A stretch of DNA of 64,000 bases from Patescibacteria group bacterium (lineage in GTDB: Bacteria > Patescibacteriota > Patescibacteriia > UBA9570 > JAHJKD01): NCBI GenBank assembly GCA_043798935.1, contig JAZDOC010000006.1, positions 24,996 through 88,995 on the forward strand, written 5' to 3'. The position numbers and the translations under genes were made by a program. Below the pieces are notes generated by a model that was given only the letters and a program-made list of their open reading frames with translations, did no database searches and was not told the DNA's origin. Below are positions 5,566 through 50,859 of this stretch, piece by piece (position 1 is the first letter of the stretch; each line of letters opens with the position of its first letter).

Positions 5566-5577
5566 ATTTGTATTATA

Positions 5578-7602: not shown

Positions 7603-7603
7603 T

Positions 7604-13953: not shown

Positions 13954-15261
13954 ATGAAAATTAGCGTTATTGGAACCGGATATGTAGGATTAGTATCCGG
14001 AACATGTTTAGCAGATATCGGTCATCAAGTTAATTGCTTGGATATCGATGAACAAAAAATAAAAAATTTAAACAGTGGAATCATTCCAATTTATGAACCC
14101 GATCTAGAGCAGTTAGTAAAACATAATATTGAAACCGGACGATTAACTTTTTCTACATCATTAAAAGATAATCTTAATGATAGTGAAGTAGTTTTTATCG
14201 CTGTGGGAACACCTTCAGCTGAAGACGGCCAAGCCGATTTACAGTATGTCTATGCTGTGGCTGAAGAAATTGGAAAGAATATCAATGGTTATAAAGTGAT
14301 TGTTGATAAAAGTACAGTACCGGTTGGTACGGGTAAAGAAGTGGAAAATATCATTAAAAAATATTATAACGGAGAATTTGATGTAGTGTCATGCCCGGAA
14401 TTTTTACGTGAAGGTTCAGCAGTCAAAGATTTTTACGAACCGGATAGAATAGTAATCGGCGTGCGAACTGAAAAGGCCGGAAAAATTATGCAGGATGTTT
14501 TTAAAGATGTTAAAGGAGAAAAATTTATTACTACTGTTGAAAGCGCAGAGCTAATTAAGTACGCTTCTAACGCTTTTTTAGCCACTAAAATTTCTTTTAT
14601 TAATGAAATTGCACATATCTGTGAAAAAGCCGGTGGTGATATCGAAGAAGTGGCTTATGGTGTAGGCTTAGATCAAAGAATCGGCTCTAAATTTTTAAAA
14701 GCCGGCATTGGCTGGGGAGGGAGTTGTTTTCCAAAAGATGTTAAAGCCTTGGATCAAATTGCCGGTAGCCATGGTTATGATTTTAAATTATTAAAATCGG
14801 TAATTGAAGTGAATAAACACCAACGCGATCATTTTGTTGATAAGATTAATAATTTTTTTAGTAACGATTTAAAAGGAAAAAAATTATGTGTTTTAGGCTT
14901 GGCGTTTAAAAATAATACCGACGATATCCGCGAATCGGCCGCGATTGACATTATAAAATTATTAATTCCTAGCGATGCTGATATTCATGCTTTTGATTAT
15001 GAAGCCACGGAAAACGCCAAACGAGTTTTAGGAGATAAAATAACTTATGCCGTTGATCCTTACGAAGCTATTAAAGACAGCGATGCTGTTTTAATAGTGA
15101 CGGAATGGAAAGAATTTAAAGAGCTGGATTGGTCGCGCATTCGCACATTAGTAAAAAATAAAGTTGTTTTTGACGGTCGTAATTTATTAAGCCGATCCAA
15201 AATGAAAGAGCTTGGTTATGCGTATTTTAGCATTGGAAAAAACGGCGAACATTTACAATAA
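13954..15261 (+). CDS. ugd: UDP-glucose 6-dehydrogenase
   Basis: MKISVIGTGYVGLVSG N-terminus, catalytic GGSCFPKDV motif, 435 aa. Confidence 0.85.
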   Translation: MKISVIGTGYVGLVSGTCLADIGHQVNCLDIDEQKIKNLNSGIIPIYEPDLEQLVKHNIETGRLTFSTSLKDNLNDSEVVFIAVGTPSAEDGQADLQYVYAVAEEIGKNINGYKVIVDKSTVPVGTGKEVENIIKKYYNGEFDVVSCPEFLREGSAVKDFYEPDRIVIGVRTEKAGKIMQDVFKDVKGEKFITTVESAELIKYASNAFLATKISFINEIAHICEKAGGDIEEVAYGVGLDQRIGSKFLKAGIGWGGSCFPKDVKALDQIAGSHGYDFKLLKSVIEVNKHQRDHFVDKINNFFSNDLKGKKLCVLGLAFKNNTDDIRESAAIDIIKLLIPSDADIHAFDYEATENAKRVLGDKITYAVDPYEAIKDSDAVLIVTEWKEFKELDWSRIRTLVKNKVVFDGRNLLSRSKMKELGYAYFSIGKNGEHLQ

Positions 15262-15265
15262 AAAT

Positions 15266-16204
15266 ATGAAACTGATTGTTAATATCCCTTGTTATAATGA
15301 GGAAGAAAATTTAGCCAGTGTTATTAAAGAGATCCCGCGATCGATTGAAGGTTTGGAATCGGTGGAAGTTTTAGTTTATGATGATGGTTCAACCGATGGT
15401 ACCGCGCAAATTGCAAAAAGCGCTGGGGCTGATTATGTAATTTCTCATAAAAAAAACAAGGGTTTGGCCGCCACGTTTAAAGATGCAATCTGGGAAGCAG
15501 TAGTACGCGGAGCTGATATTATAGTTAATACCGACGGCGATAATCATTATGATCAGTCCAAAATTGCCACTCTAATTGAACCGATTTTAAAAAAACAAGC
15601 CGATATTGTAATTGGCTCCAGAAAGAACCTGAATACAAAAAATAAAAATTTAAACAAATTTGGCAGTTTTGTAATGACTAAATGGGCTGGTATGCCTAAG
15701 TATGATGTTTCGACCGGATTTCGAGCGTATAATCGTGAAGCCGCATTAAAAATAGGAATATATTCACCACATACTTATTGTCATACTACTTTATTTTCGG
15801 CTCAAGATTTAAATTTAACAGTTAAACAAATTGCCATTGCTGATAGACCTGTTTCCAGACCATCAAGATTAATTAAAAATGTGCCTGATCATATTTGGAA
15901 AGCCGGCTGGAATATTGTTGGTAATGTGGTGATATTTAGATCTATGCGTTTTTTCGGATTTACCGGAGCGTTGTTGTTAATTTTGGGTTTATACCCCATG
16001 CTTAGGTTTGCGTATTATTATATTGTCGAGCAAGGTAATGGCCATATTCAATCTTTAATCGTTGGATCCATGTTAATGATGATTGGATATTTAAACATTG
16101 TTTTAGGACTGCTTGGCTCTTCAATCGGTTGGTCTCGAAAAGTATCTGAAGAAGCATTATATCGAATTAAAAAGATTGAATTAGATAAAAATAAAGAAGA
16201 GTAA
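15266..16204 (+). CDS. GT2 polyprenyl-phosphate glycosyltransferase (GtrB/ArnC/DPM-synthase-like, with C-terminal TM helices)
   Basis: NIPCYNEEENL, DDGSTDGT, TDGDNH (DxD); two C-terminal TM helices; start set at ATG after ugd stop. Confidence 0.7.
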   Translation: MKLIVNIPCYNEEENLASVIKEIPRSIEGLESVEVLVYDDGSTDGTAQIAKSAGADYVISHKKNKGLAATFKDAIWEAVVRGADIIVNTDGDNHYDQSKIATLIEPILKKQADIVIGSRKNLNTKNKNLNKFGSFVMTKWAGMPKYDVSTGFRAYNREAALKIGIYSPHTYCHTTLFSAQDLNLTVKQIAIADRPVSRPSRLIKNVPDHIWKAGWNIVGNVVIFRSMRFFGFTGALLLILGLYPMLRFAYYYIVEQGNGHIQSLIVGSMLMMIGYLNIVLGLLGSSIGWSRKVSEEALYRIKKIELDKNKEE

Positions 16205-16226
16205 TAAAACACTTCGATTCTTTTTT

Positions 16227-17249
16227 ATGAAAATACTATTTATTACCAGAAAGTATCCGCCGCAAATTGGAGGCATGGAAGCCTTTTCTTTTGGACTGAT
16301 TAATAATATTAAATGTGATAAAGAAATAATCGCTTTAAATAAAAAGCAAATTCATTTGCTTTGGTGGCTACCTTATGCATTAATTTTAACTTTATTTAAA
16401 GCGCGTCGTGTCGAGCACATACATTTAGGTGACGGACTGTTAGCGCCGATTGGATTTTTAATAAAAAAAATTTACCGCAAACCGGTATCAGTGACAGTTC
16501 ATGGATTAGACATTACTTATAATAATTTCATTTATCAAAATATAAATGTTAGAGCTCTGAAACATTTAGATAAAATTATTTGTGTTAGTAGTAGCACTAA
16601 GCAGGATTGTATTGAAAAAGGAGTTAGCGAAAGTATAATCGAAATTATTCCAAATGGTATTGATATAAATAAATTTTCAATTTTCAATTTTCAATTTTCT
16701 TCTTCACAAAATAAAATTTTACTAACTGTGGGTCGTTTAGTGAAAAGAAAAGGCGTGGAATGGTTTATTAAAGAAGTAATGCCTAAATTAGATCAAAATA
16801 TTATTTATTTGATTGCCGGTGATGGTCCGGAAATGCAAAATATTCATCATCAAATAATAAATTTAAATTTAGAACACAGAGTAAAATTATTAGGCAGAAT
16901 TAGTCATGAAAAATTAATCGAACTATATAATACAGCTGATCTATTCATTATGCCTAATATTCATGTAAAAGGGGACACAGAAGGGTTTGGAATTGTGGCG
17001 CTTGAAGCCGGCGCTTGCGGATTAATGACTCTAGCAACTGATATTGATGGTATCAGAGATGTTATTAAAGATAATGAAAATGGGTATTTATTGCCAGATA
17101 GAGATGCTCTAATGTGGGCTAATAAAGTGAATGAAATTATCAAGAGTGATTATGAAAGAATCAAAATATGTTCTTATATTCATAGGAATTATTCTTGGAG
17201 AGAAATAACTAATCAATATAAAAAAATATGGGAATCGAAAAAACATTAA
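16227..17249 (+). CDS. glycosyltransferase family 4
   Basis: EGFGIVALEAGACGLMTLATDIDGIRDVIKDNENGYLL. Confidence 0.75.
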   Translation: MKILFITRKYPPQIGGMEAFSFGLINNIKCDKEIIALNKKQIHLLWWLPYALILTLFKARRVEHIHLGDGLLAPIGFLIKKIYRKPVSVTVHGLDITYNNFIYQNINVRALKHLDKIICVSSSTKQDCIEKGVSESIIEIIPNGIDINKFSIFNFQFSSSQNKILLTVGRLVKRKGVEWFIKEVMPKLDQNIIYLIAGDGPEMQNIHHQIINLNLEHRVKLLGRISHEKLIELYNTADLFIMPNIHVKGDTEGFGIVALEAGACGLMTLATDIDGIRDVIKDNENGYLLPDRDALMWANKVNEIIKSDYERIKICSYIHRNYSWREITNQYKKIWESKKH

Positions 17250-17629
17250 GAACCGGTTTAGCAGCGGCTTTATTATCATCTGCGCCTGACGTCTTGGCCG
17301 GAAGAATAGATACTAATGAGGCTACAATTCATGCTGAAAAAAAGGAGTTTATGGATGCGTATAATGGAGCCATAGTAAACGAACCTGGTGCAACGCAGAT
17401 GTTTATCGACCTAGCTAATACATATTGGTATTCAGATCTGTTAGATTCAAATGAAGCGAAAAATTTCTGTGTTTGTATTTTAGAAGTCGCGGAAAATAAT
17501 AATAAAGCGTACGATGCGCTGAAATTAATAATATCAGATAGTAATTTTGCATTGAATTTACATGCAACTACTGCAGAAGAGACAAAATCATTACGACTAA
17601 GATTAGGTTTATTATTAGCTAATAAATAA
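17228..17629 (+). CDS. hypothetical protein
   Basis: 133-aa ORF with a 4-nt-type overlap to the upstream GT4 and balanced composition; preferred over the antisense ORF at 17329-17706. Confidence 0.35.
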   Translation: MGIEKTLRTGLAAALLSSAPDVLAGRIDTNEATIHAEKKEFMDAYNGAIVNEPGATQMFIDLANTYWYSDLLDSNEAKNFCVCILEVAENNNKAYDALKLIISDSNFALNLHATTAEETKSLRLRLGLLLANK

Positions 17630-17644
17630 AATTTTAATAATATA

Positions 17645-17673
17645 TTGACAATGCACTCTAATAGCACTACAAT
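17645..17673 (+). promoter_or_regulatory. consensus sigma70 promoter TTGACA-17-TACAAT
   Basis: Perfect -35 hexamer, exact 17-nt spacer, 5/6 -10 hexamer; sits in the only sizeable gap before the sat operon. Confidence 0.6.
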
Positions 17674-17683
17674 AAGAGTGTAT

Positions 17684-17706
17684 TTGATTAACACAAGGTT
17701 AATCAA
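17684..17706 (+). promoter_or_regulatory. perfect 9-bp inverted repeat TTGATTAAC-N5-GTTAATCAA (operator-like) just downstream of the predicted TSS
   Basis: Seen directly in the sequence; lies at about +5 to +27 of the promoter above. Confidence 0.5.
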
Positions 17707-17725
17707 AATATTTAAATAATTAAAG

Positions 17726-17758
17726 TTATGACCCAGCTTGCCTAGGTCAGAATAAAAA
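17726..17758 (+). other. conserved leader motif copy A (TTATGACCCAGCTTGCCTAGGTCAGAATAAAAA), ends 4 nt before the ATG at 17763
   Basis: 31/33 identical to a second copy at 51603-51635 with identical spacing to a start codon. Confidence 0.5.
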
Positions 17759-17762
17759 TTTT

Positions 17763-17987
17763 ATGGCCGAAATTATTATCCCTAATGATTTGAAAGAATC
17801 GTTAGAACAAATTGTAAAAGATTCTAATGAATTTAGCAGTGTTAATGATTATGCTACTTACATTCTTAAACAAGTAGCCGATAAGAAAAAAGCTTCTCAA
17901 ACACAATCTCATCAAGATCAGGCTTATTCTAAAGAAGATGAAGCTAAAATAAAAGAACGACTTCAAAATCTTGGTTATCTAGATTAA
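17763..17987 (+). CDS. small hypothetical protein, possible ribbon-helix-helix (CopG/Arc-like) DNA-binding protein
   Basis: 74 aa; N-terminal beta-strand-like IIIPNDLKESLEQIV followed by helices; first gene after the promoter/palindrome. Confidence 0.35.
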   Translation: MAEIIIPNDLKESLEQIVKDSNEFSSVNDYATYILKQVADKKKASQTQSHQDQAYSKEDEAKIKERLQNLGYLD

Positions 17988-18029
17988 ATTACAAATTGAT
18001 TAAAAATTGAAAAATTAATTATATATATT

Positions 18030-19178
18030 ATGATTCAACCTCATGGAAATGTTTTAATAAACAGAGTGTTAAAACCTGAAGATGCTTTAAAAGCCAAAAT
18101 TAAGGCTGATGGTTTAAAGAAGATTAAAATAGACGAAGAGTTAGTAAAAGAAGTTAAAAATATTGCGCGCGGTGTTTTTTCTCCGCTCGATGGTTTTATG
18201 AATAAAGCTGATTTTGAAAGCGTAGTAGAAAATATGCACTTGGCAAATGGCGTGGTTTGGCCTTTACCGTTTGTTTTAGATATTAACGATCAAGATGCAG
18301 AAAGTATTGCTGTAGGAGATCAAATTGCTTTAATAGATGATAATAACGAACCGATTGCCTTAATGAACGTGGAAGATAAATATAATTTTGACAAAGATAA
18401 TTTTGCTGTCAAAGTTTTTAAAACTAATGAATTAGCCCATCCGGGTGCTAAAATGGTGAGCGAAATGTATGATATATTAATTGGCGGTGAAATTGAATTA
18501 ATAGATAATTCTAAAGAGCCGTTTAATAGTTTCAATTTGGATCCGCTAGAAACCAGAACATTATTTAAAGAGCGCGGATGGAATACTGTCGTAGGTTTTC
18601 AAACCAGAAATGCTCCTCATTTAGCTCATGAATATATTCAGAGGTGTGCGCTCGAAATTTGCGATGGTTTATTTGTTAATCCGGTAATCGGCAAGAAAAA
18701 ATCCGGTGATTTTCAAGACCAGGTAATTTTAGATTCATATCAGGCGTTAATTAATAATTTTTTTCCTAAACAGAGAGTAGTAATGAGTATTTTACCGCTT
18801 AAAATGCGCTATGCCGGTCCGCGGGAAGCAATTTTTCACGCTATCGTACGCAAGAACTTTGGTTGTACTCATTTTATCGTGGGGCGCGATCACGCCGGCG
18901 TTGGTAAATATTACGGCACTTATGAAGCGCAAGAAATTTTCGATACAATCGAAGATTTAGGCATGACGATTTTAAAATTTGAACATTCATTCTATTGTAA
19001 AAAATGCCGGGCATTGGGAACCGCTAAAAATTGTCCGCATACCGACGAAGATCGTATTGGACCTTCAGGAACAATTATCAGAGAAATGATATCTAAAGGC
19101 GAACTGGTGCCAGAAGAAATTATGCGCCCGGAAATTTCTAAGGTTTTAATTGATGCCGATAAGACTTTTGTTGATTAA
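18030..19178 (+). CDS. sat: sulfate adenylyltransferase (ATP sulfurylase)
   Basis: GFQTRNAPHLAHEYIQ and VGRDHAGVG signature motifs; 382 aa homo-oligomeric type. Confidence 0.85.
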   Translation: MIQPHGNVLINRVLKPEDALKAKIKADGLKKIKIDEELVKEVKNIARGVFSPLDGFMNKADFESVVENMHLANGVVWPLPFVLDINDQDAESIAVGDQIALIDDNNEPIALMNVEDKYNFDKDNFAVKVFKTNELAHPGAKMVSEMYDILIGGEIELIDNSKEPFNSFNLDPLETRTLFKERGWNTVVGFQTRNAPHLAHEYIQRCALEICDGLFVNPVIGKKKSGDFQDQVILDSYQALINNFFPKQRVVMSILPLKMRYAGPREAIFHAIVRKNFGCTHFIVGRDHAGVGKYYGTYEAQEIFDTIEDLGMTILKFEHSFYCKKCRALGTAKNCPHTDEDRIGPSGTIIREMISKGELVPEEIMRPEISKVLIDADKTFVD

Positions 19179-19187
19179 AAATAAAGC

Positions 19188-20183
19188 ATGAATGAATTAG
19201 AGCAATTAAAAAATAATCGAAAAGGATTGATTATCCATCATTGGGATACGGACGGCTTGTGTTCGGCGGCTTTGCTCAAACGTTTTTTTATTGCATTAAA
19301 TTCTAAGATAGCGCTTGATATAATGCCACCGACCATTAATAATTATTTTTTAACGGCTAGAGAATTCACAGAAATTAAACGCGCAAAATATGACTTCATT
19401 ATTACTTGCGATATAAATTTTCCGCCTAAAGTGGTTTTAGAACTCGAGGCCATTAAACCAAAAAAAGTATTTGTTTTTGATCATCATAAGCAAGATCCGA
19501 TTAAAGAAGTGCATTATTATAATCGGCGTTATCCTAGTAACACTTTAGTATTGGCTGAATATCTGGAATTAGATATGGATTTATTAATCAGCTTAGGTGC
19601 TATCGGCGATAAAGAGGAAAAAATAAAACAAGATAAACAATATTGGCCGTTAATAAATAAAGTATTAAATAATAATAATATAAATTTTGAGCAAGTATTA
19701 CAGATTAGAGATTTAGTTGACGCCAGTTACGTTATTAATGATGCAGATTTAATGCGGAAAGTCATTGATGTATTAGCCATTAATCCGTTATTAATCACTA
19801 AAAATGATGAATTGAAAAATTCATTAAATTTAATTCATAGTGAAATTCAAAGTAAAACAGAGCGAACACCAGATGAAATTATTAATGGGGATGTATTATT
19901 ATTTAATATTGAATCTAATTATAATATTTTATCTCAAGCTACCAGAGTTTTAGCTAGAAAATATCTGAATAAAATAATATTAACTTATTCAAAAAAAGGC
20001 GAGCAGACTAATATATACATTCGTCGTCAAGATTTAGATTTAAATTTATCACCACTTATAACTTGGGCCAGATCGCAGAAATTCAATTCCGGCGGAAAAG
20101 AAGAAGTTGTTGGAATAATAATTAATCAGGATTTTTCTAATATTAAATCTGATTTAGTCAATAAAATAAGAGAATTACTATGA
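19188..20183 (+). CDS. DHH-family phosphoesterase, NrnA-like (candidate 3'-phosphoadenosine-5'-phosphate phosphatase)
   Basis: IIHHWDTDGLCSAALL (motif I/II) and VFVFDHHKQD (DHH motif); about 330 aa with DHHA1-like C-terminal half. Confidence 0.65.
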   Translation: MNELEQLKNNRKGLIIHHWDTDGLCSAALLKRFFIALNSKIALDIMPPTINNYFLTAREFTEIKRAKYDFIITCDINFPPKVVLELEAIKPKKVFVFDHHKQDPIKEVHYYNRRYPSNTLVLAEYLELDMDLLISLGAIGDKEEKIKQDKQYWPLINKVLNNNNINFEQVLQIRDLVDASYVINDADLMRKVIDVLAINPLLITKNDELKNSLNLIHSEIQSKTERTPDEIINGDVLLFNIESNYNILSQATRVLARKYLNKIILTYSKKGEQTNIYIRRQDLDLNLSPLITWARSQKFNSGGKEEVVGIIINQDFSNIKSDLVNKIRELL

Positions 20184-21565
20184 GCCAAAAAAAATTATTT
20201 GTTTTGGGGCTTGATTGTGCCACGCCGCAATTTTTATTTGACGAGTATTTAGATGATTTGCCGACATTTAAAAAATTATTTTCTCAAGGAGCCTATGGTA
20301 AATTGCGAAGCACTATTCCGGCTATTACGGTTCCGGCTTGGATGAGCATGATGACAAGCCAAACCCCGGGAGATTTAGGAATCTATGGATTTCGTGGGCG
20401 GCGGGCCGGCTCGGGGTATAACGACATGTTTATTGCCAGTGCTGAGCATGTTCAATATAAAAAAGTTTGGGATTATCTAAACATGGCTGGATTAAAAACC
20501 GGCATGCTAAGCGTGCCGTTAACCTATCCGCCGCAGACCGTGGATGGATTTATGGTAAGCGGTTTTATGACGCCATCGCTGGAAAGTGAATTTACTTATC
20601 CCAAAGAATTAAAACAAGAAATTGCCGATGTGGTAGGCGAATATATTTTTGATTTTGCAAATCGTTCAACCGAAGCTCCGGAAAAGATTTTGGAAAAAAT
20701 TTATGAGATGACCGATAAACGACATAAATTAATCAAGTATTTTATCAAAAACAAGCAGTGGGATTTTTTAATGATGGTAGAAATGGGCGTGGATCGGATT
20801 CATCATTACATGTGGAGCTATGTGGATCCAAAGCATCCTAAATTTCAGGGAGAAAATAATAAATTTAAAAACAGCATTAAAGAATATTATCAGCATATTG
20901 ACCGGCAGCTAAGTGAAATTTTAGATTTATTACCGAAAGAGTGTAGTGTTATGATAGTGTCTGATCACGGCGCTAAGGCCATGGATGGTATGTTTTTAAT
21001 TAATGAATGGCTAATTAAAGAAGGGTATTTAGTATTAAAAAATTATCCAACTAGCGTCACTCGGCTGGAAAAATGTGATATCGACTGGTCTAAAACCAAA
21101 GCTTGGGCTTGGGGCGGTTTTTATTCCCGCATTTTTATTAATGTTAAAAGACGCGATCCGGAAGGTATCGTGGAAGATTTTGAAACAGAGCGAGATTCAT
21201 TAGCCCGAAAATTAAAAGCCATAACCGATGATCACGGTAATAAATTAATAAACATTGTCGCACCGGCTAATGAATTATACAATGATCCCCAAGGCGATGT
21301 ACCGGATTTATTGGGATTTTTTGGAGATTTATCTTGGCGACCAGGCGGTACCGTCGGGCATAATAAAATTTATATTCATGAAAACGATACTGGCCCTGAT
21401 GATGGTGTGCACGATTGGAACGGAATATATGCTTTTTGGCAGCCCGAGAAAACCGGAAGCGGGTTATTGCCGGAGTCGAGTATTTTAGATATTGCGCCAA
21501 CTATTCTAAATTATTTTGGAGTGGATATCCCAAAAGATTTTAAGGGAAAAATAATTAATTACTAA
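20180..21565 (+). CDS. alkaline-phosphatase-superfamily protein, nucleotide pyrophosphatase/phosphodiesterase (PF01663-like)
   Basis: LFVLGLDCATPQF N-terminal metal/nucleophile motif, MIVSDHGA motif; paralog of 25914-27518. Confidence 0.6.
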   Translation: MSQKKLFVLGLDCATPQFLFDEYLDDLPTFKKLFSQGAYGKLRSTIPAITVPAWMSMMTSQTPGDLGIYGFRGRRAGSGYNDMFIASAEHVQYKKVWDYLNMAGLKTGMLSVPLTYPPQTVDGFMVSGFMTPSLESEFTYPKELKQEIADVVGEYIFDFANRSTEAPEKILEKIYEMTDKRHKLIKYFIKNKQWDFLMMVEMGVDRIHHYMWSYVDPKHPKFQGENNKFKNSIKEYYQHIDRQLSEILDLLPKECSVMIVSDHGAKAMDGMFLINEWLIKEGYLVLKNYPTSVTRLEKCDIDWSKTKAWAWGGFYSRIFINVKRRDPEGIVEDFETERDSLARKLKAITDDHGNKLINIVAPANELYNDPQGDVPDLLGFFGDLSWRPGGTVGHNKIYIHENDTGPDDGVHDWNGIYAFWQPEKTGSGLLPESSILDIAPTILNYFGVDIPKDFKGKIINY

Positions 21566-21571
21566 AAAAAT

Positions 21572-22177
21572 ATGACCGAACAAAAAGCAACAAACATCAC
21601 TTGGCATGATGGCGAAATTAATAAAAAAGAGCGTGAGCAGTTATTAAAACAAAAAGGAGTAATTTTGTGGTTTACGGGTCTTTCCGGATCTGGAAAGTCT
21701 ACTGTAGCTGTAGCTTTAGAAAAGAAGCTGTTTGAAATGGGTCACATTAATTACCGTTTAGACGGCGATAATATTCGCCATGGCCTCAATAAAGATTTAG
21801 GCTTTTCACCAGAAGATAGAGTAGAAAATATTCGTCGTATTGGTGAAGTATCAAAATTATTTGCCGATGCTGGCGATATTGTTTCGACATCATTTATTTC
21901 GCCGTATCTTAAAGATCGTGAGATTGTGCGTGATTTAGTTCCAGCCGGAGAGTTTATAGAAGTTTATGTAAAATGTTCGCTGGCTGAATGCGAAAAGCGC
22001 GATCCTAAAGGATTATACAAAAAAGCCCGCGCCGGAGAATTAAAGCAGTTTACAGGCATAGACGCGCCTTATGAAGAGCCAATTAACCCTGAAATGGTGG
22101 TAGAAACCGACAAACAGGCTGTAGAGCAAGTGGTGGATAAAATATTAGCTTATTTAAAAGAAAAAGGCATAATTTAA
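21572..22177 (+). CDS. cysC: adenylyl-sulfate kinase (APS kinase)
   Basis: P-loop [13 protein letters not shown], 201 aa, typical CysC length and motifs. Confidence 0.9.
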
Positions 22178-22224
22178 GCTTTAATCAGAAAAATATACAG
22201 ATTTATTGCTTTATTATTTTAGGC

Positions 22225-22253
22225 TTGCCAAATAACGAAAACTAGGGCATAAT
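22225..22253 (+). promoter_or_regulatory. candidate promoter TTGCCA-17-CATAAT ending 7 nt before the ATG (possible leaderless transcript)
   Basis: 5/6 -35, 17-nt spacer, 5/6 -10; predicted TSS coincides with A of ATG at 22260. Confidence 0.3.
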
Positions 22254-22259
22254 AATGGC

Positions 22260-24017
22260 ATGTTAAAATCGTTACAACGTTTCTGGATAATTACAATTGT
22301 TATCTGTCTAATTTTAGGCGCATTTTTTTCATATATTTATTTTCAGGATCATGCTTGGGGTACCTGGGGAGACGATAGCGCCGGATACATTTATTTGTGG
22401 GGCAAAATGGATCAAAATAAAGATTTAGTTTATCAAGAGCCTTTAACCGTAGCGGCGCTTAAATTTTTTGGTAATGAAAAATTAGCACGCTGGACCACGC
22501 CGACTCATCATGAAATCATCTCGCCGTCGGGGTATGTCGCATCCAAATATCCGATAGGCCTTTCACAAATAATGCTATTGTTTTCTCGGCTCTTTCAAGA
22601 CGATAAGGCTATTTATTATGTCTTGCCATTACTAGCAACAATAAATTTAATTCTTGTATATTTAATATCACTAATATTTTTTAAAGACATTAAATACAAA
22701 CACTTTTTTAGTTTGTTGCCGGCCTTTATGCTGGGCCTGGCTAGCTTGTATTATAATTATGCTATTTCTCAGCCCATGCGGGAAATTCCGTCTATGTTTT
22801 TCTTATTGGCTGGTTATTTATTTTTATTGCTGGCAGTTGAATATTATGGTTCACAAAATCAAAAGAAAGATAAAATATTTTTTTATACTTTAATAATATT
22901 AGCATCATTATTTGCCGGCTATAGCTTAAACGTTAGAGAAACCAGTATCATGATTTTGCCGGCTTTTTTAATAATGTTGTTTAGTATATCTAATAGAAAT
23001 GCTGAGCCCCAAGAAAAAAATAAAAACATTAAGTTTAAAATTAAATTAGCATTATTAGCTTTATTAATGTTAATTATCGCTTATATACCGTCTTTTATTA
23101 ATTCGGCTGATATTACCCAATTTAAAGAAAAATTCAGAGCTAAAGATATCACGTCTATTGCCATTACTTCAAATTTTGATCATATCAGTTCATTTAGCTT
23201 GCAAAATGTTTTTAATAACCAGGGAAAATTCAGGCCCGGGCGCGGTGCTTTACCGCATTATTGGGGCGTAATGAATGATAATTTAGCTGTCTGGCCATGT
23301 TTTATTGTTCTAGCAATAATAGGACTATATTCTATTTATAAAAAAAATAAATGGCTATCGGCCAGTTTACTACTATGGATTCTGGGTGTATTAATAATTT
23401 TTTCTTTATGGATAAACCCTTATTCCAGATATATTTTGCCACTGTTTCCAATATTAGCCATTTGCGGAAGTTATGGATTGTATGCAGTGTGTTTTAAAAT
23501 TGTACCACATTTTTTCAAGAATAAACGCCTACAGTTTTTAGTTTGTTTAATAATATTATTATCTTTAATTATTTCATATCTACCGGCAATAATCGATATT
23601 AAAACTAATTTTAATGAAAATGAAGACGGCGAAGAAAAGTTGGTGTTTAAAGCAATCTCTGAAAATGATTTATTTAGTTTAAAGGGTTTAGGAGAAAAAA
23701 TTTATACTGATAATAAAACTGATAAACCGCCATTAGTGGTTTTTAGCGGTACTTGGCAATACGGAATTTCTGAAACTTTTGAAGCCCATACTGGAATTCA
23801 AGGTATCCACATGCCACTTGAAGACAAGAAAAATGTTTTCGATAAAGAACAGGTAAAAGATTTTTTTACCCAAGAAGTGTTTCCAAATTATAATGTATAT
23901 TTTTGGATAGACGCGACCAGTAAATCAAACAGCGTTGATTTTATTAATTATTTTAAAGTACAACCTAAATATTCTTATTCATTAACATTTGCTAACCCCA
24001 CTATTTATGGAAATTAA
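22260..24017 (+). CDS. multi-pass membrane protein, putative GT-C glycosyltransferase (ArnT/PMT-like)
   Basis: 585 aa, about 10 N-terminal TM helices with early acidic loop motif (WGDDSAGY), large C-terminal extracytoplasmic domain. Confidence 0.4.
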   Translation: MLKSLQRFWIITIVICLILGAFFSYIYFQDHAWGTWGDDSAGYIYLWGKMDQNKDLVYQEPLTVAALKFFGNEKLARWTTPTHHEIISPSGYVASKYPIGLSQIMLLFSRLFQDDKAIYYVLPLLATINLILVYLISLIFFKDIKYKHFFSLLPAFMLGLASLYYNYAISQPMREIPSMFFLLAGYLFLLLAVEYYGSQNQKKDKIFFYTLIILASLFAGYSLNVRETSIMILPAFLIMLFSISNRNAEPQEKNKNIKFKIKLALLALLMLIIAYIPSFINSADITQFKEKFRAKDITSIAITSNFDHISSFSLQNVFNNQGKFRPGRGALPHYWGVMNDNLAVWPCFIVLAIIGLYSIYKKNKWLSASLLLWILGVLIIFSLWINPYSRYILPLFPILAICGSYGLYAVCFKIVPHFFKNKRLQFLVCLIILLSLIISYLPAIIDIKTNFNENEDGEEKLVFKAISENDLFSLKGLGEKIYTDNKTDKPPLVVFSGTWQYGISETFEAHTGIQGIHMPLEDKKNVFDKEQVKDFFTQEVFPNYNVYFWIDATSKSNSVDFINYFKVQPKYSYSLTFANPTIYGN

Positions 24018-24678
24018 TAAAATCAGCGATATTAAAAAATATCAAAAAGCGCACGATAGTATTTTTTCCAAACTAATTACCCGTAAAATTTCAGTTATTT
24101 TTAGCTTTTATTTAATTAAGCGTTGGAAGCAGGTAACACCTAATAAAGTTTCGCTAATTTCTTTTATTACAGCCGTGGTAGCTATCGGATTATTTCTGGC
24201 TGATAATTATTTTGTTCGATTACTCGGCGTAGTTTTTTTACAAATTTCTTTTGCCTTAGATTGCTCTGATGGAGAAATTGCTAGAATTAAAGAAATGAGT
24301 TCTAAATTCGGCGCTTGGATGGATAGTGTTTTAGACAGGTTTAAAGAAGTAATGATGTTTGGAGCATTAACTTTTATTGTTTATAATTATGCCTGGGATA
24401 CGTCTGCTTTATTAATCGGATCTTTGGCAATAATTTTATGGCTATTAGTGGGATTTTTAAGAGAAGCAAAAAAGTCTTCCTGGCCGGAAAAGCGCACAGC
24501 GGAATTATATATTACTGATAACATATATATCGGTACCGTAGATACTACTATTTATTTTGTATGCTTTGCCATAATAATCCACATGGAATTGATGGCGTTA
24601 TGGGTTTTTGCAATTTTGGGATTAATACTACTAGTGAAACAAATTATTAGTGCTTGGCAGCTGGAGAAAAAGATTTAA
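23989..24678 (+). CDS. CDP-alcohol phosphatidyltransferase family protein
   Basis: D-x2-DG-x2-AR-x7/8-G-x3-D-x3-D signature: DCSDGEIARIKEMSSKFGAWMDSVLDRFKE; 6 TM helices. Confidence 0.7.
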   Translation: MLTPLFMEINKISDIKKYQKAHDSIFSKLITRKISVIFSFYLIKRWKQVTPNKVSLISFITAVVAIGLFLADNYFVRLLGVVFLQISFALDCSDGEIARIKEMSSKFGAWMDSVLDRFKEVMMFGALTFIVYNYAWDTSALLIGSLAIILWLLVGFLREAKKSSWPEKRTAELYITDNIYIGTVDTTIYFVCFAIIIHMELMALWVFAILGLILLVKQIISAWQLEKKI

Positions 24679-25966
24679 AATATTTTGTCTGCATAAACAG
24701 CAGAATTATAAAGAGAATAGATAAAGCGATAGTTGAAACTCTGGTTAATATAAAATTACTATTCGGAATGAAATTGTAAAATTCTGTCGAAATGAAAATA
24801 ACAACACTAATAATACTTAAATAAACTTTTTTTTCTTTTAAAAAATAATAGATTAACCATATTAGAATTGGTACGGTCCAAAATAAATATTGAGCATGAA
24901 CACTTTTATTGAACAATAGAAAAAAAGTCATCATCAGAGCATAATCATTTAAATATTGTTGCCCAGAAAGAGTAACTCTTTTTTTATACATTAAGTATAA
25001 AATTGTTGTAAAGAAAAAAATTGTTGATAAAAGAAATAAATCATCAAAAGTTGATATTAAAGTTTGATTGGGCAATGATAAAAAGGGCAAATAATTTTTT
25101 TTAATTGCGACTCGAACAAGGCTATATAAAGAAACTCCTGATGTTAGATCGTTTATGCCATTAACAAAATATTCCCAAAAAACATTTTTCCAGAAATAAT
25201 AAATGCCATTTATTTTAAAATACGGAACAGTCGCGATCACTAATAATATTGATGAAAAAACATAAGATGTCAGGGCACGCCATTGTTTTTTAATAATAAA
25301 ATATGGAACGAAAATAACCGGAAATATTTTTAAGGCTGTTGCTATAGCCAAGATACTGCCAGCCATAATCGGTTTTTTTTTATAAAGAGCAATAAAAGTG
25401 GTGATTAATAAAAATAATATCACCCCATTAATTTGGCCGGTTCCCATTAAGCTGTTAATTGGTGCGGCAAAACATAATAGAAGCAATGAAATGGAAAAAA
25501 GCGGATGGAATAATTTTTTTCGATCAATTAAAAAATAGATACCGGCATAATAAGTAATAATAAATAGCAGTGAATTAAACTAGAGCCAATAGTGAACTAA
25601 TATTTTAAATTTAAAATGCGAAAAAAATAAAAAGAAAAGCGCTGCTTGCGGTGGATATAAAAATTTTGTTCCGCCGCTATCGAATACTTTTCTAACTTCC
25701 GGTCTAAAAAACGGACGATTATAGATGTCGACGGCGGTTAAAGGAGTTAATATACCGGTTAATACTTTTGATGATGTATAATAAACGCACATATCGCTCC
25801 GACCATAGCCTTTGTTATTAAGATAAACACCGTTGTAATAAAGAAAAAAAATAATCGCTATTATAAACAGAACAATACAAAATATCTTATAAAATTTTAA
25901 TAAATTATATTTGTTAAAATTTAATGTCATTGATAAGATTATTAATCGCTTGTTTTTCAGTTTCAA
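24647..25966 (-). pseudogene. GT87/DUF2029-like GT-C membrane glycosyltransferase interrupted by one in-frame TAG (codon at 25580-25582)
   Basis: ORFs 25580..25966 and 24647..25486 are in the same frame; manual translation shows no other stop between them (amber then FNSLLFIITYYAGIYFLIDRKKLFHPFFSISLLLCFAAP...); N-terminal part has the YPPqAAlFF motif typical of DUF2029. Confidence 0.4.
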
Positions 25967-27518
25967 ATATTATTTCTTTTTGTTCCTTAAAAATTTCGGT
26001 TATTACTTTGCCGTCCATGTCGCGCGGGATAGGAATATTTAATAAATGTAATATAGTAGGTGCAAGGTCGGTAATATTATTGTCTTCTAACTCTGTATTT
26101 GATTTAATATTTGGTCCTAGAGCCAAGAAAATACCGTCCATATCATGGTGGTATTTATTACTGTCCTGATTATCATTAAAAATTTTACCTGAATAGAAAT
26201 TACCGTCTAGCCAGTAATTTTTTAAATCGAAAAATAAATCAGGCGCATCTATGGGGGCATTTTTTCCGTAAACATCTTCTTTGGTTAATATTTTTTCGAT
26301 AACTTTTTCTCCTGAAGCATCAGTAAGTTTTTCTAACTTTTGTTTAATTTCGGTTCTGATTTTTAAATATTCTTTTTCGGTTTTAATTATACCGTCGTGA
26401 TATTTTTTTTGATAATTTAGATATACATTAGTAATATGACCGCCTTTTGGGATACAAGCATAAGTTTTGCTGTAGTCAACTCCAATGTTAACTTTTAAAT
26501 TGATCGGTAGATATTTTTTAATGAATTTTTTATACAGCCAAAAACTAAATTTTTCTAACCAGGGAAAGTACGATAAAATTTTAAAAGCGCTTTTTCCTAA
26601 ATTAATTGCCTTGTATTTTGATTGTGTTTTAGTTGCTTCACGTCCGCGACGAGTGACACGGGTTTTAAATTGTTCTGAACCAATTTTAGAAGTGAGATAT
26701 CCTTCTTTTTCTAACCATTTATTGATATAGAAAATTTTGTGAAAAGAAGTGAATCCATGATCGCTCATCATAAGTAAAGTTGTATCAGGAGGCAAGTTTT
26801 CTAAAAACCATCCTAAATAACCATCGATTATTTTATATATTTCTAATGATTTTGGATCGCGATCATTAACAACTTCATCAAAACGAGCGTGCTGAAGCCA
26901 ATCGGTAGCGGAAAAAAGATAAAAGAAAAAATCCCATTTTTTTGTAGTAAATATTTTTTTAACAGCTGCTAAATGATCGTGTTCCATTTGACCGATTTCT
27001 TCAATGTATGCTTCTTGTCTTTCTTTCATGCGCAAAGATTCATTAGGAGTGAGTTTGTATTTTTTTAGTTCTGGAAATTCTTCAATTAATGAATTTGGCC
27101 AAATCCATTGGTCGCCTTGTGTAAGCAAAGAAGTAATAACAATGTGTTTATCTTTTAATCGTGGTGGCCAGGAATTAGGCAGGTTAATTGTAATGGGTTC
27201 TAATCCTTGTTCGGAAATAATTTCGTAAACTGTTTTGCCTTTTATATCACGGGAAGATGTGATACGAAAATCAGTTAGACTGCCATTAGATAATAAAAAA
27301 TCATAAACACCATGCTTGCCGGGTGTTTTACCGGTAGCGAAAGTAGTCCAGGCAGTACCGGTCATGGGTGGAATCGTGGATTTTAAAATTCCATGACTGC
27401 TTAATTCTAATATTTTTTTAAAATTAGGCATTACGCCTTCTTCAGCCAGCGGTTTTAAAATTTTATATGTTCCGCCATCGAGGCCGATTACAACAACTTT
27501 ATTGTTTGCTTGTGTCAT
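25914..27518 (-). CDS. alkaline-phosphatase-superfamily protein, nucleotide pyrophosphatase/phosphodiesterase (PF01663-like), paralog 2
   Basis: VVVIGLDGGTYKIL and MMSDHGF motifs; alignable with 20180-21565 (LKSTIP..T..AW....T..TPG..G.Y.F). Confidence 0.6.
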   Translation of the reverse strand: MTQANNKVVVIGLDGGTYKILKPLAEEGVMPNFKKILELSSHGILKSTIPPMTGTAWTTFATGKTPGKHGVYDFLLSNGSLTDFRITSSRDIKGKTVYEIISEQGLEPITINLPNSWPPRLKDKHIVITSLLTQGDQWIWPNSLIEEFPELKKYKLTPNESLRMKERQEAYIEEIGQMEHDHLAAVKKIFTTKKWDFFFYLFSATDWLQHARFDEVVNDRDPKSLEIYKIIDGYLGWFLENLPPDTTLLMMSDHGFTSFHKIFYINKWLEKEGYLTSKIGSEQFKTRVTRRGREATKTQSKYKAINLGKSAFKILSYFPWLEKFSFWLYKKFIKKYLPINLKVNIGVDYSKTYACIPKGGHITNVYLNYQKKYHDGIIKTEKEYLKIRTEIKQKLEKLTDASGEKVIEKILTKEDVYGKNAPIDAPDLFFDLKNYWLDGNFYSGKIFNDNQDSNKYHHDMDGIFLALGPNIKSNTELEDNNITDLAPTILHLLNIPIPRDMDGKVITEIFKEQKEIIFETEKQAINNLINDIKF

Positions 27519-28203
27519 ATTGCTTGAATTGTTTATAATTTAGATAAATAGAAAAACAAGTATAAATAAATTGAATGATTGCATACATTACTAGTAATAA
27601 AGAAACTTGGTTAAGCAGTGCAAATATAATTATTAAACCATAACGATCCGCTTCTTTAAATAGCAGAGTGTGTTTAAGCGATCGAATGAATTGGCAAGGA
27701 ATTTTTTTAATAATAACTTTTTCAGATATTTGAGCTTTATATTTTAATTCGAAAGATTCGCGCCAATAACGCGACATGTTTCTTAAATATTGGAAACTCA
27801 GTGCAAAAAAAGCGAAGACATAAACTAAGCATTCGTGATTAATTTGATAGGCACCCCAGGCTAATCCAAAAAGAATAAGTACATCTTTAATTTTATCAGT
27901 ATAATGATCATACCATTCTCCTAATTTAGATTGTTTGCTAATCAAGCGCGCTAGTTGCCCATCTACACAATCAAATATTAAAGTTATTAGTAATAATAAA
28001 GAACCCACAATCAATTGATTATTAGCAAATAGCCAGGCAGTAATAATACCGGAAATAAATGAGATAGTTGTGAAAAAGTTAGGTGATAACCATTTTATTT
28101 TAGTAGCCATTTTGGCAATCAAAAAAGATATTTGACCAGCAAAATAATATGTTAGCAAACTATCTTCTTTCTTTATGACGTCGCGCGGGTTGTTATAGCT
28201 CAT
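27499..28203 (-). CDS. CDP-alcohol phosphatidyltransferase family protein, paralog 2
   Basis: DCVDGQLARLISKQSKLGEWYDHYTDKIKD signature; 6 TM helices. Confidence 0.7.
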   Translation of the reverse strand: MSYNNPRDVIKKEDSLLTYYFAGQISFLIAKMATKIKWLSPNFFTTISFISGIITAWLFANNQLIVGSLLLLITLIFDCVDGQLARLISKQSKLGEWYDHYTDKIKDVLILFGLAWGAYQINHECLVYVFAFFALSFQYLRNMSRYWRESFELKYKAQISEKVIIKKIPCQFIRSLKHTLLFKEADRYGLIIIFALLNQVSLLLVMYAIIQFIYTCFSIYLNYKQFKQYDTSKQ

Positions 28204-29245
28204 TTAATAACTGATTAATATTAAAATCATCCAAATTTAATTTTTCTAGAATTGTATATCTATCAGGGCGGGTTTGAGGGGCGAATTTCAGCACTTCTAT
28301 CATTTGGCTATGAGTAAGGTTGATATCTTGATAATGAGTTGGTAGGCTAAGGTTTTTAAATAATTTTTTGTAATTATTATAATAAGCACTATTTCTTAAT
28401 TTTTCGGTAATAATTATTCCTAAAGCTACTTGTTCGCCATGCATGGCCGTGTTTGGAAATAGTTTGTCAATGGCGTGGGAGATTTTATGCTCTGCACCAG
28501 AACAGGGGCGAGAGTTTCCGGAAATATGCATAGCTATACCGCTTAATACTAAGCCGTTAATTAAAGTGAGTAAAAATTTATCTGAGTATATATTAATGTT
28601 ATAATCATCATCGACATTGCCGTAAATTAAATCTGCGGCCGAATAAGCAAGCGACATGGCGAAATCATCAATTTTTTCTTGTTTTTCCATGTGGGCTAGT
28701 TTCCAGTCGGCTAGTGCTGAAAAATTTGATAATAAATCACCTGTGCCAGCTTGAATATTTTTAAGCGGTGCTTTTTTTATTATATCTAAATCCACAATAA
28801 TGCCTGTTGGCATATTAACGCCCATGCTTTGTTTTAAATTATTACCGTCTGTTAAGACTGCAATTGGCGAAGCGATACCGTCGTGCGATGGAGAAGTCGG
28901 TACAGAAATATAATTTACATTAGCCTTAGTGGCAGCGTATTTTCCTACATCCAGAACTTGGCCTCCGCCAATAGCGATTATGGCATCGTGGGCATTAGTT
29001 AGAATTTGATCTTTAATTTTTTCCGCCGCCGTAATAGAACTGTCATTACTAATTAAAATATTTTGAGGTTGACATAATGAATTTAAATTTATATTTTCCA
29101 AATTTTTAACGGTTTTACTAATAAGTATTAAAGGGTTATTAGCAATTAAATTTTCTTCAATTAAAATATTTTTAATATCATTAATAATATTTTTTTCAAT
29201 TTTGATAAATAAGGGAACTTGTGTATCGCGGAAATTTACCGACAT
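28193..29245 (-). CDS. glycerol-1-phosphate dehydrogenase [NAD(P)+]-like (AraM/EgsA family, Fe-ADH/DHQS-like fold)
   Basis: GGGQVLDVGKYAA glycine-rich NAD motif, SVPTSPSHDGIASP (G1PDH-type substrate/metal motif), GAEHKISHAIDKL His pair; 350 aa. Confidence 0.55.
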   Translation of the reverse strand: MSVNFRDTQVPLFIKIEKNIINDIKNILIEENLIANNPLILISKTVKNLENINLNSLCQPQNILISNDSSITAAEKIKDQILTNAHDAIIAIGGGQVLDVGKYAATKANVNYISVPTSPSHDGIASPIAVLTDGNNLKQSMGVNMPTGIIVDLDIIKKAPLKNIQAGTGDLLSNFSALADWKLAHMEKQEKIDDFAMSLAYSAADLIYGNVDDDYNINIYSDKFLLTLINGLVLSGIAMHISGNSRPCSGAEHKISHAIDKLFPNTAMHGEQVALGIIITEKLRNSAYYNNYKKLFKNLSLPTHYQDINLTHSQMIEVLKFAPQTRPDRYTILEKLNLDDFNINQLLNEL

Positions 29246-29249
29246 ATGT

Positions 29250-37665: not shown

Positions 37666-37700
37666 ATGTTTTTTTGTAAAAATAATAAATATATTTCAGC

Positions 37701-39975: not shown

Positions 39976-40002
39976 TATAATAACTATCTATATTGTCTCA
40001 CG

Positions 40003-41100: not shown

Positions 41101-41112
41101 AATTATTTTAAA

Positions 41113-44432: not shown

Positions 44433-44459
44433 ATTTAGTTTATCAAAAATTTTTTTGAA

Positions 44460-46700: not shown

Positions 46701-46776
46701 TAAACTGAATGTTGTTATGCATTTAAGTTAGTATTATATATATTAATATATATAATCGTTTCAATTATTTTTATTG

Positions 46777-46805
46777 TTGACATATCCGCATTAACTTCAT
46801 ATAAT
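46777..46805 (+). promoter_or_regulatory. perfect consensus sigma70 promoter TTGACA-17-TATAAT
   Basis: Exact hexamers and spacer; 38 nt upstream of the ATG at 46844. Confidence 0.6.
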
Positions 46806-46843
46806 ATACAAGAATTTATTAAAAAGATCAAGAAAAATTAACT

Positions 46844-47797: not shown

Positions 47798-47853
47798 TTT
47801 TAAATTGTAATTAACAAAGAAAGCGAGTCTCCCGACGAGCTAAAATAAAATAT

Positions 47854-49495: not shown

Positions 49496-49590
49496 ATTTT
49501 TAATTTTTTGTTCCTTGAATAAATTCAGGTTTAAAAAATCAATGTAAATATAGAGGCCCTGAATTTATTCAGGGTGTCAAAAAATAATAA

Positions 49591-50859
<1,269 letters not shown>

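Follow-up and report, generated by a model that had tools for sequence, protein, structure and literature searches.

A 64,000-nucleotide stretch of contig JAZDOC010000006.1 from a Patescibacteria group bacterium (hereafter the window) carries, at positions 17645-22177, an operon for sulfate activation. The operon is likely to supply sulfate in its activated form (3'-phosphoadenosine 5'-phosphosulfate, PAPS) to be used for sulfating a cell-surface glycan, and not for cysteine synthesis. It encodes ATP sulfurylase (Sat), adenosine 5'-phosphosulfate (APS) kinase (CysC), a predicted DHH-family phosphatase of 3'-phosphoadenosine 5'-phosphate (PAP), and a cytoplasmic enzyme of the alkaline-phosphatase superfamily that is referred to here as AlkP460. 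Accounts of PAPS synthesis generally name two enzymes; AlkP460 is identified here as its third conserved partner, a conserved core member of the module in many bacteria and archaea.

Sulfate activation and predicted PAP recycling

An earlier reading of the letters alone (the sequence-only reading) had placed the four genes at coordinates that the list of open reading frames (ORFs) reproduced exactly:

18030-19178, + strand: ATP sulfurylase (Sat); PF01747 307.3 bits, PF14306 (PUA_2) 175.2 bits
19188-20183, + strand: DHH-family PAP phosphatase of the MtPAPP type; PF01368 38.8 bits (cut-off 28.1)
20180-21565, + strand: AlkP460, cytoplasmic NPP/PafA-like enzyme of the alkaline-phosphatase superfamily; PF01663 145.6 bits
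21572-22177, + strand: APS kinase (CysC); PF01583 232.3 bits

The genes are tightly packed, with junction spacings of +9, -4 and +6 nt; the 4-nt overlaps that had been described in the plural therefore come down to one. Sat and CysC proved to be bona fide, as had been claimed: both score above the cut-offs of their profiles (539.5 bits against NF003166, cut-off 387, for Sat; 312.5 bits against NF003013, cut-off 163, for CysC) and have intact catalytic motifs. Sat contains FQTRNAPHLAH from residue 190 and GRDHAG at 285, QxRNxxHxxH and GRDHAG being taken to be the catalytic motifs of such enzymes, and CysC contains the P-loop GLSGSGKS at 36, DGD at 64 and FISP at 108. The top match of Sat in the PDB is MtATPS, the ATP sulfurylase of the methanogen Methanothermococcus thermolithotrophicus (8a8d, 5.6e-126), whereas CysC resembles the APS kinases of plants and bacteria more closely than it does MtAPSK of that organism.

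The sole PDB match of the DHH protein is 8a8k, the M. thermolithotrophicus PAP phosphatase MtPAPP (1.3e-19, residues 13-315). MtPAPP is a biochemically proven PAP-specific, Mn-stimulated phosphatase that is encoded beside ATPS and APSK and resembles NrnA or RecJ in sequence only at the DHH motif; its Mn ligands are His6, Asp8, Asp10, Asp57, His76, His77 and Asp127 (Jespersen et al. 2023, PMC10322725). Equivalents of all seven are retained in the window's protein, in which HHWDTDG, DIN, DHH, GD and GGK align with the metal and nucleotide residues of MtPAPP. The protein had been called NrnA-like, a family assignment that has to be replaced: Pfam matched only the DHH N-domain and no DHHA1 domain, no NrnA chain was among the PDB matches at E <= 0.01, and the NCBIfam RecJ matches lie far below their cut-offs. 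The proposed role in PAP recycling is the right one, with the family being of the MtPAPP type, because the sole PDB match is 8a8k and the metal ligands are retained; the protein is accordingly a predicted PAP phosphatase.

The likeness to M. thermolithotrophicus thus covers Sat, which is closest to MtATPS, and the DHH protein, which matches only MtPAPP, and it extends to the clustering of the sat, PAP phosphatase and APS kinase genes in both organisms. However, the window contains neither PAPS reductase nor Fsr, the host is a bacterium of the Candidate Phyla Radiation (CPR) whose genes lie within a glycan locus, and the window adds an AlkP-family enzyme and a small tailed protein.

AlkP460 and its gene neighbourhoods

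The role of the AlkP/NPP-family gene had been flagged as unexplained, and rightly so, as its product is a PF01663 member of an uncharacterised family. A database search with AlkP460 returned more than 7,200 clusters (90% identity) at E <= 1e-5. The best 120 of these are 47-80% identical to it over the full length and come from Patescibacteria, Asgard lineages, Thermoplasmatota, DPANN, Brocadiaceae, KSB1, Acidobacteria and Dependentiae. The only names given to the relatives are 'alkaline phosphatase family protein' and 'predicted AlkP superfamily phosphohydrolase/phosphomutase', and no description of the family was found in the literature searched. At least 589 matching stretches were confirmed among GTDB species representatives, including Chloroflexota, Verrucomicrobiota, Planctomycetes (the cultured Singulisphaera sp. 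Ch08), Bathyarchaeota and Nitrosopumilaceae. Members from CPR, Asgard and other archaea, Chloroflexota, Verrucomicrobiota and Planctomycetes share 45-55% identity.

Neighbourhoods were counted by searching the six-frame ORFs of 83 AlkP460 loci (individual loci are given by their L number) with the window's proteins, with these results:

sat within 3 kb of AlkP460: 51 of 83 loci
cysC within 3 kb of AlkP460: 56 of 83 loci
sat or cysC within 3 kb of AlkP460: 63 of 83 loci
both sat and cysC within 3 kb of AlkP460: 44 of 83 loci

Among the loci with full flanks (at least 3 kb on both sides), sat and/or cysC was present in 35 of 50. Genomes ranging from CPR to Asgard archaea repeat the order sat-(DHH)-AlkP460-cysC, and a Freyarchaeota contig has the same arrangement as the window; the DHH PAP phosphatase is present in about six to eight of the 83 loci (CPR, Freyarchaeota, Methanomethylicota). 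AlkP460 is also fused to either partner. Fusions of sat to AlkP460 occur in eight Chloroflexota species, and fusions of AlkP460 to CysC in three lineages (P0060 in L001, and metagenome-assembled genomes, MAGs, of Desulfocucumis and Nitrosopumilaceae), while a sat::cysC fusion adjoins AlkP460 in two loci. Because sat and cysC lie so close, the gene order is shared and fusions run both ways, the genomes strongly indicate that AlkP460 acts together with the enzymes of sulfate activation.

The AlkP460 family as a whole belongs to exopolysaccharide loci. In Verrucomicrobiota and Ktedonobacteria (L039, L047, L069, L073, L078 and others) the AlkP460 gene is followed by that of a GHMP sugar kinase and lies near genes for GDP-mannose dehydratase and a GmhA-like isomerase of the SIS type, whether or not sat and cysC are present. 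Exosortase (EpsH/DUF3485) loci are its setting in Planctomycetes and a Schekmanbacteria MAG.

Sulfation or assimilation

The proposal that PAPS is made for glycan sulfation and not for cysteine is supported by the glycan-gene setting, by the lack of reductase genes in the 64 kb and by a carbohydrate-type sulfotransferase encoded next to a Wzx flippase. Glycosyltransferases, flippases and sugar-nucleotide enzymes surround the operon, and a Pfam scan of the window's large ORFs found no cysH/PAPS reductase, APS reductase, cysD/N or sulfite reductase, as had been claimed of the assimilatory genes. The sulfotransferase, a putative PAPS consumer, and the flippase are encoded as follows:

3345-4259, - strand: PAPS-dependent carbohydrate-type sulfotransferase; Sulfotransfer_3 49.2 bits (cut-off 27), Sulfotransfer_1 47.6 bits (cut-off 22)
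4261-5619, - strand: Wzx-type flippase; PF01943 67.6 bits

The description of the 3345-4259 product as a Sulfotransfer_1-type enzyme with PAPS-binding motifs was borne out by both profiles, which score above their gathering cut-offs, and by a 5'-PSB loop KCGTT (consensus KxGTT) at residues 16-20 and a 3'-PB motif RNPVERAYS (consensus RxPxxRxxS) at 115-123. Its top PDB match is the bacterial sulfotransferase 3rnl (3e-74), followed by heparan-sulfate 3-O-sulfotransferases (1e-8 to 1e-9). The flippase gene lies directly upstream and is transcribed in the same direction. Homologues about 50% identical to the sulfotransferase occur in Thermosulfurimonas, Hippea, Methanocaldococcus infernus, Brocadiaceae and cyanobacteria, and in Thermosulfurimonas and a Brocadiaceae MAG (L087 and L088) the flippase-then-sulfotransferase pair recurs within polysaccharide loci of the Wzx/Wzy type, which also contain Wzy, GLF, glycosyltransferases and additional sulfotransferases. 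A role in sulfating polysaccharide units is supported by the presence of the homologues in these flippase-paired loci.

In the resulting scheme, Sat would convert ATP and sulfate to APS and pyrophosphate (PPi), and CysC would convert APS to PAPS, both steps being assigned from strong homology. PAPS would then be used in the cytoplasm by a sulfotransferase, for which the Wzx-coupled 3345-4259 enzyme is the candidate by virtue of its location; from the same location, its acceptor would be a lipid-linked sugar unit that is sulfated before flipping, and the locus suggests UDP-GlcA-derived and galactofuranose units as candidate sugars. The MtPAPP-type enzyme would convert the inhibitory PAP to AMP, again from strong homology. 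Two observations count against this scheme. The sulfotransferase gene lies 13.8 kb from the operon on the opposite strand, and it has no counterpart within +/-10 kb in the related CPR genome L085. As the enzyme lies outside the conserved module and shares only 56% identity with its nearest homologue, it is tied to the operon by co-location only, and it is from this co-location that the 3345-4259 sulfotransferase may be taken to use the operon's PAPS.

Known bacterial systems that pair PAPS synthesis with a sulfotransferase include rhizobial NodPQ/NodH, mycobacterial CysDNC/Stf0 and the cyanobacterial xss cluster for sulfated exopolysaccharide. The window shares with them a dedicated PAPS supply and a canonical PAPS-dependent sulfotransferase in a surface-glycan context. 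In contrast to its homo-oligomeric Sat, those systems use a heterodimeric CysD/CysN sulfurylase or housekeeping genes, and they lack an operon-encoded PAP phosphatase, an AlkP-family member and a tailed small protein.

That the operon instead feeds assimilatory sulfate reduction as in M. thermolithotrophicus, with the reductases encoded elsewhere in the genome, is highly improbable. The closest PDB relatives of Sat and of the DHH protein are indeed assimilation enzymes of that methanogen. However, Patescibacteria generally lack amino-acid biosynthesis, and the 64 kb contain no reductase. The M. thermolithotrophicus PAP phosphatase gene lies near those of ATPS and APSK in a predicted sulfate-reduction operon (PMC10322725), whereas the cassette described here is embedded in, and co-conserved with, glycan genes.

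The AlkP460 active site and its paralogues

In an alignment of the AlkP460 family, Asp12, Thr50, Asp205, Arg206, His209, Asp262 and His263 are invariant and His411 is nearly so, which together make up the two-metal site and the Thr nucleophile of the superfamily; the PF01663 score lies above its cut-off. Arg72 is also invariant, and a stretch rich in Trp, Tyr, Arg and Asn is conserved at residues 303-329. A sequence search of the PDB with AlkP460 gave no match, and a profile search gave only marginal matches (arylsulfatase, phosphonoacetate hydrolase PhnA and Xac NPP), useful solely to place the nucleophile: Thr50 aligns with the nucleophiles of Xac NPP and PhnA and with the formylglycine Cys of arylsulfatase 6hhm. 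No signal peptide was found, the N-terminus leading straight into strand 1.

AlkP460 does not look like an NPP proper, as the aromatic pair Phe91/Tyr205 and Asn111 of Xac NPP and its extracytoplasmic location have no evident counterparts. In a motif alignment, which was used in place of structural superposition, the equivalents of the base-stacking residues and of Asn111 would be Val/Ile51, Val200 and Phe71/Arg72. Arg206 would come after the first Asp that binds metal, at the site of Lys328 in E. coli alkaline phosphatase, and Arg72 would neighbour the position of NPP Asn111. What AlkP460 has in common with the NPP/PafA/PhoK branch is the fold, the set of ligands for two metals and the Thr nucleophile; it differs in being only 12-18% identical, in its cytoplasmic location, in the additional invariant Arg72 and Arg206, in having, by the motif alignment, Val or Ile at the base-stacking sites and, as the alignment and a structure model are read, in a conserved insertion of about 100 residues. 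The bimetal site, the Thr nucleophile and the extra invariant arginines point to phosphoryl-transfer chemistry, and these features would suit phosphoryl chemistry with a highly charged substrate in the cytoplasm better than they would suit a sulfatase or a classical nucleotide diesterase.

In 26 of the 83 loci AlkP460 has AlkP paralogues within 10 kb, often as two or three divergent copies, and all of them retain the metal ligands and a Thr or Ser nucleophile. The window contains one such gene, whose product is 29% identical to AlkP460:

25914-27518, - strand: AlkP535, divergent paralogue of AlkP460; PF01663 114.5 bits

Its metal ligands and Thr nucleophile are intact, and the gene is translationally coupled to one for a CDP-alcohol transferase; AlkP535 could equally be a phosphatase or a phospho-alcohol transferase. 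Paralogues of this type stand beside the cassette in L001, L004, L026, L074 and L085. In a further paralogue of about 450 residues (L002, L012, L034, L040, L045, L062, L064, L067, L074 and L080) Ser replaces the Thr nucleophile, and Arg206 and Arg317 are retained without Arg72. Its gene lies immediately downstream of cysC, and as the DHH PAP phosphatase is missing from these loci, this paralogue may substitute for that enzyme.

Possible reactions of AlkP460

The reading preferred here, on a tentative basis and at something less than probable, is that AlkP460 is a by-product hydrolase, with PPi its most likely substrate. In this role it would remove a phosphate-containing by-product and so pull the unfavourable Sat reaction. 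With Sat, CysC and the PAP phosphatase already assigned, removal of PPi is the step of sulfate activation that is left unfilled. A PPi hydrolase is favoured because of this unfilled step, because a pyrophosphatase is a known third partner in other systems and because no Ppa- or CysQ-like gene was found in the loci: neither a family-I pyrophosphatase (E. coli Ppa as query) nor CysQ was found in the window or the 83 loci. In diatoms, haptophytes and oomycetes, triple fusions of APS kinase, ATP sulfurylase and pyrophosphatase (APK-ATPS-PPase) belong to a sulfation pathway in the cytosol (PMC4220642), and the Entamoeba mitosome contains a triad of ATP sulfurylase, APS kinase and inorganic pyrophosphatase (AS, APSK and IPP) in which the pyrophosphatase is essential (PMC3149026). 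In these sulfation-serving pathways a third enzyme is tied, physically or genetically, to Sat and APS kinase, and AlkP460 fills the same slot and is likewise fused to either partner. It is not, however, homologous to family I or II pyrophosphatases; as it has an NPP/PafA-like fold and no homology to Ppa or DHH-type pyrophosphatases, it may work like a pyrophosphatase without being a member of those families.

Several observations weigh against PPi as the substrate. We know of no AlkP-superfamily enzyme that acts as a dedicated cytoplasmic pyrophosphatase. The cap region of AlkP460 is highly conserved, with invariant Trp309, Tyr315, Arg317, Asn321 and Arg325, and a 460-residue enzyme with such a cap looks suited to a larger ligand than PPi. 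About 15 of the 50 full-flank loci contain neither sat nor cysC, and hold instead genes for a GHMP sugar kinase, SIS isomerase, GDP-mannose dehydratase and glycosyltransferases, exosortase/EpsI genes and an AlkP paralogue. The linkage of AlkP460 to cysC is at least as tight as that to sat, and there are cysC-only loci and AlkP460::CysC fusions without sat nearby.

A different, and on balance unlikely, explanation is that AlkP460, its divergent paralogues or both are the PAPS consumers, i.e., AlkP-fold sulfuryl (or phosphosulfate) transferases. They would act through a covalent Thr or Ser intermediate, as EptA and LtaS do for phospho-alcohols, and the operon would then hold every step of sulfation. 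Only one of the 83 loci (L074) proved to have a canonical sulfotransferase within +/-10 kb of AlkP460, by homology to the window's enzyme and a PSB-loop regular expression, a search that would miss divergent enzymes farther off. That the operon encodes a PAP phosphatase implies that some enzyme consumes PAPS, AlkP460 is fused to the PAPS producer CysC in three lineages, and the family is found in exopolysaccharide loci even without adjacent sat and cysC. The multiple divergent AlkP paralogues mirror the multiplication of canonical sulfotransferases in Wzx/Wzy loci, and the alignment of Thr50 with the formylglycine Cys of 6hhm is also in keeping with sulfuryl chemistry. However, true sulfatases use formylglycine and one metal, and a site that combines two metals with a Thr nucleophile is geared to phosphoryl over sulfuryl transfer. 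Identity that stays at 45-55% from one domain to another suggests a small, universal substrate and not a variable glycan acceptor, the fusion to Sat is left unexplained, and the window already holds a canonical sulfotransferase.

Still less probable is a role of AlkP460 as phosphomonoesterase for a 3',5'-bisphosphate nucleotide, either as a second PAP phosphatase or as a regulator of PAPS or APS levels. AlkP460 would then be the module's PAP phosphatase in most of the genomes, which lack the DHH enzyme. The scarcity of that enzyme in the 83 loci, in none of which a CysQ homologue was found, favours this explanation, as do the PafA/PhoK-like monoesterase affinities and invariant arginines of AlkP460 and its linkage and fusion to CysC. 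In the loci free of sat and cysC, moreover, AlkP460 is paired with a GHMP kinase and an SIS isomerase, which resembles heptose 1,7-bisphosphate chemistry and its need for a bisphosphate phosphatase. Such an activity would nevertheless be redundant where AlkP460 and the DHH PAP phosphatase share one operon (the window, L004, L005, L008, L052 and L085), and it offers no rationale for the fusion to Sat.

A small protein and a shared C-terminal tail

A fifth gene lies between the promoter-like site described below and sat, and opens the operon:

17763-17987, + strand: 74-aa small protein with an N-terminal ribbon-helix-helix (RHH)-like domain and a conserved C-terminal tail (YSKEDEAKIKERLQNLGYLD)

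Homologous small ORFs, whose products align well, lie upstream of sat/AlkP460 in about 20 of the 83 loci. The N-terminal pattern of the family is typical of RHH DNA binders, with weak matches to NikR and CdrS; the RHH signal itself is weak, six of 13 members matching NikR models with a best E of 0.0035 and PDB NikR being matched at E 0.53. The tail was searched for as [YF][ST]x[ED][ED]Exx[VIL]xxRLxxLGY[LIV], with an optional D or E after it, at the extreme C-terminus. This 'RLxxLGYL' motif was found in 65 ORFs in 60 of the 83 loci and in none of the shuffled ORFs, usually on one protein per locus, and its bearers were distributed as follows:

CysC: 27 ORFs
small proteins homologous to the window's 74-aa protein: 22 ORFs
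AlkP paralogues: 10 ORFs
AlkP460: 3 ORFs
GT2 glycosyltransferase (L008): 1 ORF
774-aa membrane sulfatase-family protein (L066): 1 ORF
180-aa ORF without a Pfam match (L066): 1 ORF

Besides the window's protein, L001, L004, L005, L008 and L015 provide examples. In a structure model of P0065, an AlkP460 that naturally bears the tail, the tail is modelled, at only moderate confidence, as a helix at residues 473-485 with a pLDDT of 66-78, joined by a linker below 50. Because the same tail occurs on small proteins, CysC, AlkP paralogues and others, it is probably a peptide, shared across the module, for docking or regulation, and the 74-aa protein probably regulates the module or acts as an adaptor. 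Sulfation of the tail on Tyr was set aside, the aromatic position often being Phe. Were the AlkP enzymes transferases, the sat-AlkP460-cysC cassette would be an unrecognised bacterial and archaeal sulfation module consisting of AlkP-fold transferases, an RHH-like protein and a tail that assembles or regulates a complex; this wider picture, too, is judged unlikely.

Extent of the operon

The features that flank the genes described so far are:

17645-17673, + strand: promoter-like site TTGACA-17 nt-TACAAT, matching 11 of 12 consensus positions
22260-24017, + strand: 585-aa hydrophobic, apparently membrane-spanning protein, directly downstream of cysC
23989-24678, + strand: CDP-alcohol phosphatidyltransferase-family protein; PF01066 50.8 bits

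The promoter-like site is the best match within 17000-25600, although a consensus match only, and the total of such sites in the region is not above the shuffled expectation. Its first base is the start coordinate, 17645, that the sequence-only reading had given. The gene for the 585-aa protein follows cysC after a gap of 82 nt and is overlapped by the next gene by 29 nt. Searches of Pfam, NCBIfam and the PDB with the 585-aa protein gave no match, and the protein encoded at 23989-24678 has weak NCBIfam matches to inositol-phosphate transferases. The position of the 585-aa gene downstream of cysC is kept in the CPR relatives L005, L007, L008 and L085, and the CDP-alcohol phosphatidyltransferase-family gene is kept in L008 and L085. 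The region 17645-22177 is read as one operon, which probably extends on to 24678. No tRNA genes or Rfam families were found in the window.

The glycan island

The glycan module of the operon is syntenic over about 22 kb with L085, where AlkP460 is 78% identical. The conserved run in L085 consists of the small ORF, sat, the DHH gene, the AlkP460 gene, cysC and the genes for the membrane protein and the CDP-alcohol transferase, then a convergent operon for GT2, flippase, nucleotidyltransferase, Fe-ADH_2 protein, CDP-alcohol transferase and a second AlkP protein. Upstream of the run are genes for GtrA, GT2, two epimerases, UDP-glucose dehydrogenase, GT2 and GT4. The core of the module is also present in Kerfeldbacteria (L008) and in L005. 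Because the gene order is syntenic in L085 and the core is shared by L008 and L005, the operon is an integral, conserved part of the glycan module. Genes elsewhere in the window, for ribosomal protein L9, CtpB, PilM/N and a MurA-like enzyme, mark the organism as a bacterium; on their account an archaeal host, which matches resembling AglJ, Agl16 and archaetidylinositol synthase had suggested, was rejected.

The convergent operon of the window (24647-29984, - strand), which is conserved in L085, encodes a nucleotidyltransferase, an Fe-ADH_2 protein resembling glycerol-1-phosphate dehydrogenase, a CDP-alcohol phosphatidyltransferase, AlkP535 and a GT87-family protein. It looks like a pathway of CDP-alcohol (glycerol- or inositol-phosphate) decoration with archaeal-type affinities. 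The GT87-family ORF (24647-25486, - strand) spans only profile positions 62-234, and just upstream of it lies a 128-aa ORF (25580-25966, - strand) without a family match; the two may be one gene split by a frameshift or a stop. In L085 no GT87 gene is called at the syntenic position. Archaeal models score best for the glycan genes of 15212-17249, 23989-24678 and 27499-28203, with matches to AglJ-like GT2, Agl16-like GT4 and CDP-alcohol transferases resembling archaetidylinositol-phosphate/DIPP synthase. As these glycan genes, Sat and the PAP phosphatase are all closest to archaeal or methanogen proteins, an exchange of the whole module between domains is suggested by sequence affinity.

Adjoining the flippase/sulfotransferase pair, at 5578-9340, are genes for a 674-aa protein with GHL15 and FG-GAP domains and for a 589-aa DUF11 protein, which may be surface or glycan-processing proteins. 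A second polysaccharide region (36643-54408) encodes GDP-mannose dehydratase, three GT4 enzymes, Wzx, UDP-galactopyranose mutase, GT2, dTDP-rhamnose enzymes, AdoHcy hydrolase and a PfkB kinase; the GC content is 0.24-0.28 between 38 and 48 kb, against about 0.32-0.37 elsewhere. Two contigs labelled 'uncultured Gammaproteobacteria', CAZNEH010000032.1 (L005) and CAZMTW010000120.1 (L007), carry a CPR-type cassette that includes the 585-aa membrane protein, and their AlkP460 proteins are 71% and 54% identical, respectively, to that of the window. Either these contigs are mis-binned or the cassette was recently transferred.

Implications

The module is of a known kind, sulfate activation for sulfation, to which an uncharacterised AlkP enzyme, a tailed small protein and recurrent AlkP paralogues are added. 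The archaeal MtPAPP type of PAP phosphatase would, by its conserved ligands, now extend to bacteria. AlkP460 is a cheap and testable enzyme target. If it is a dedicated by-product hydrolase, it would explain how PPi-conserving anaerobes (CPR, Asgard archaea and Anaerolineae) drive the unfavourable reaction of sulfate activation; if it is a transferase, it would represent a new sulfotransferase fold. Under either reading, the module suggests that Patescibacteria and Asgard archaea have envelope glycans that are sulfated.

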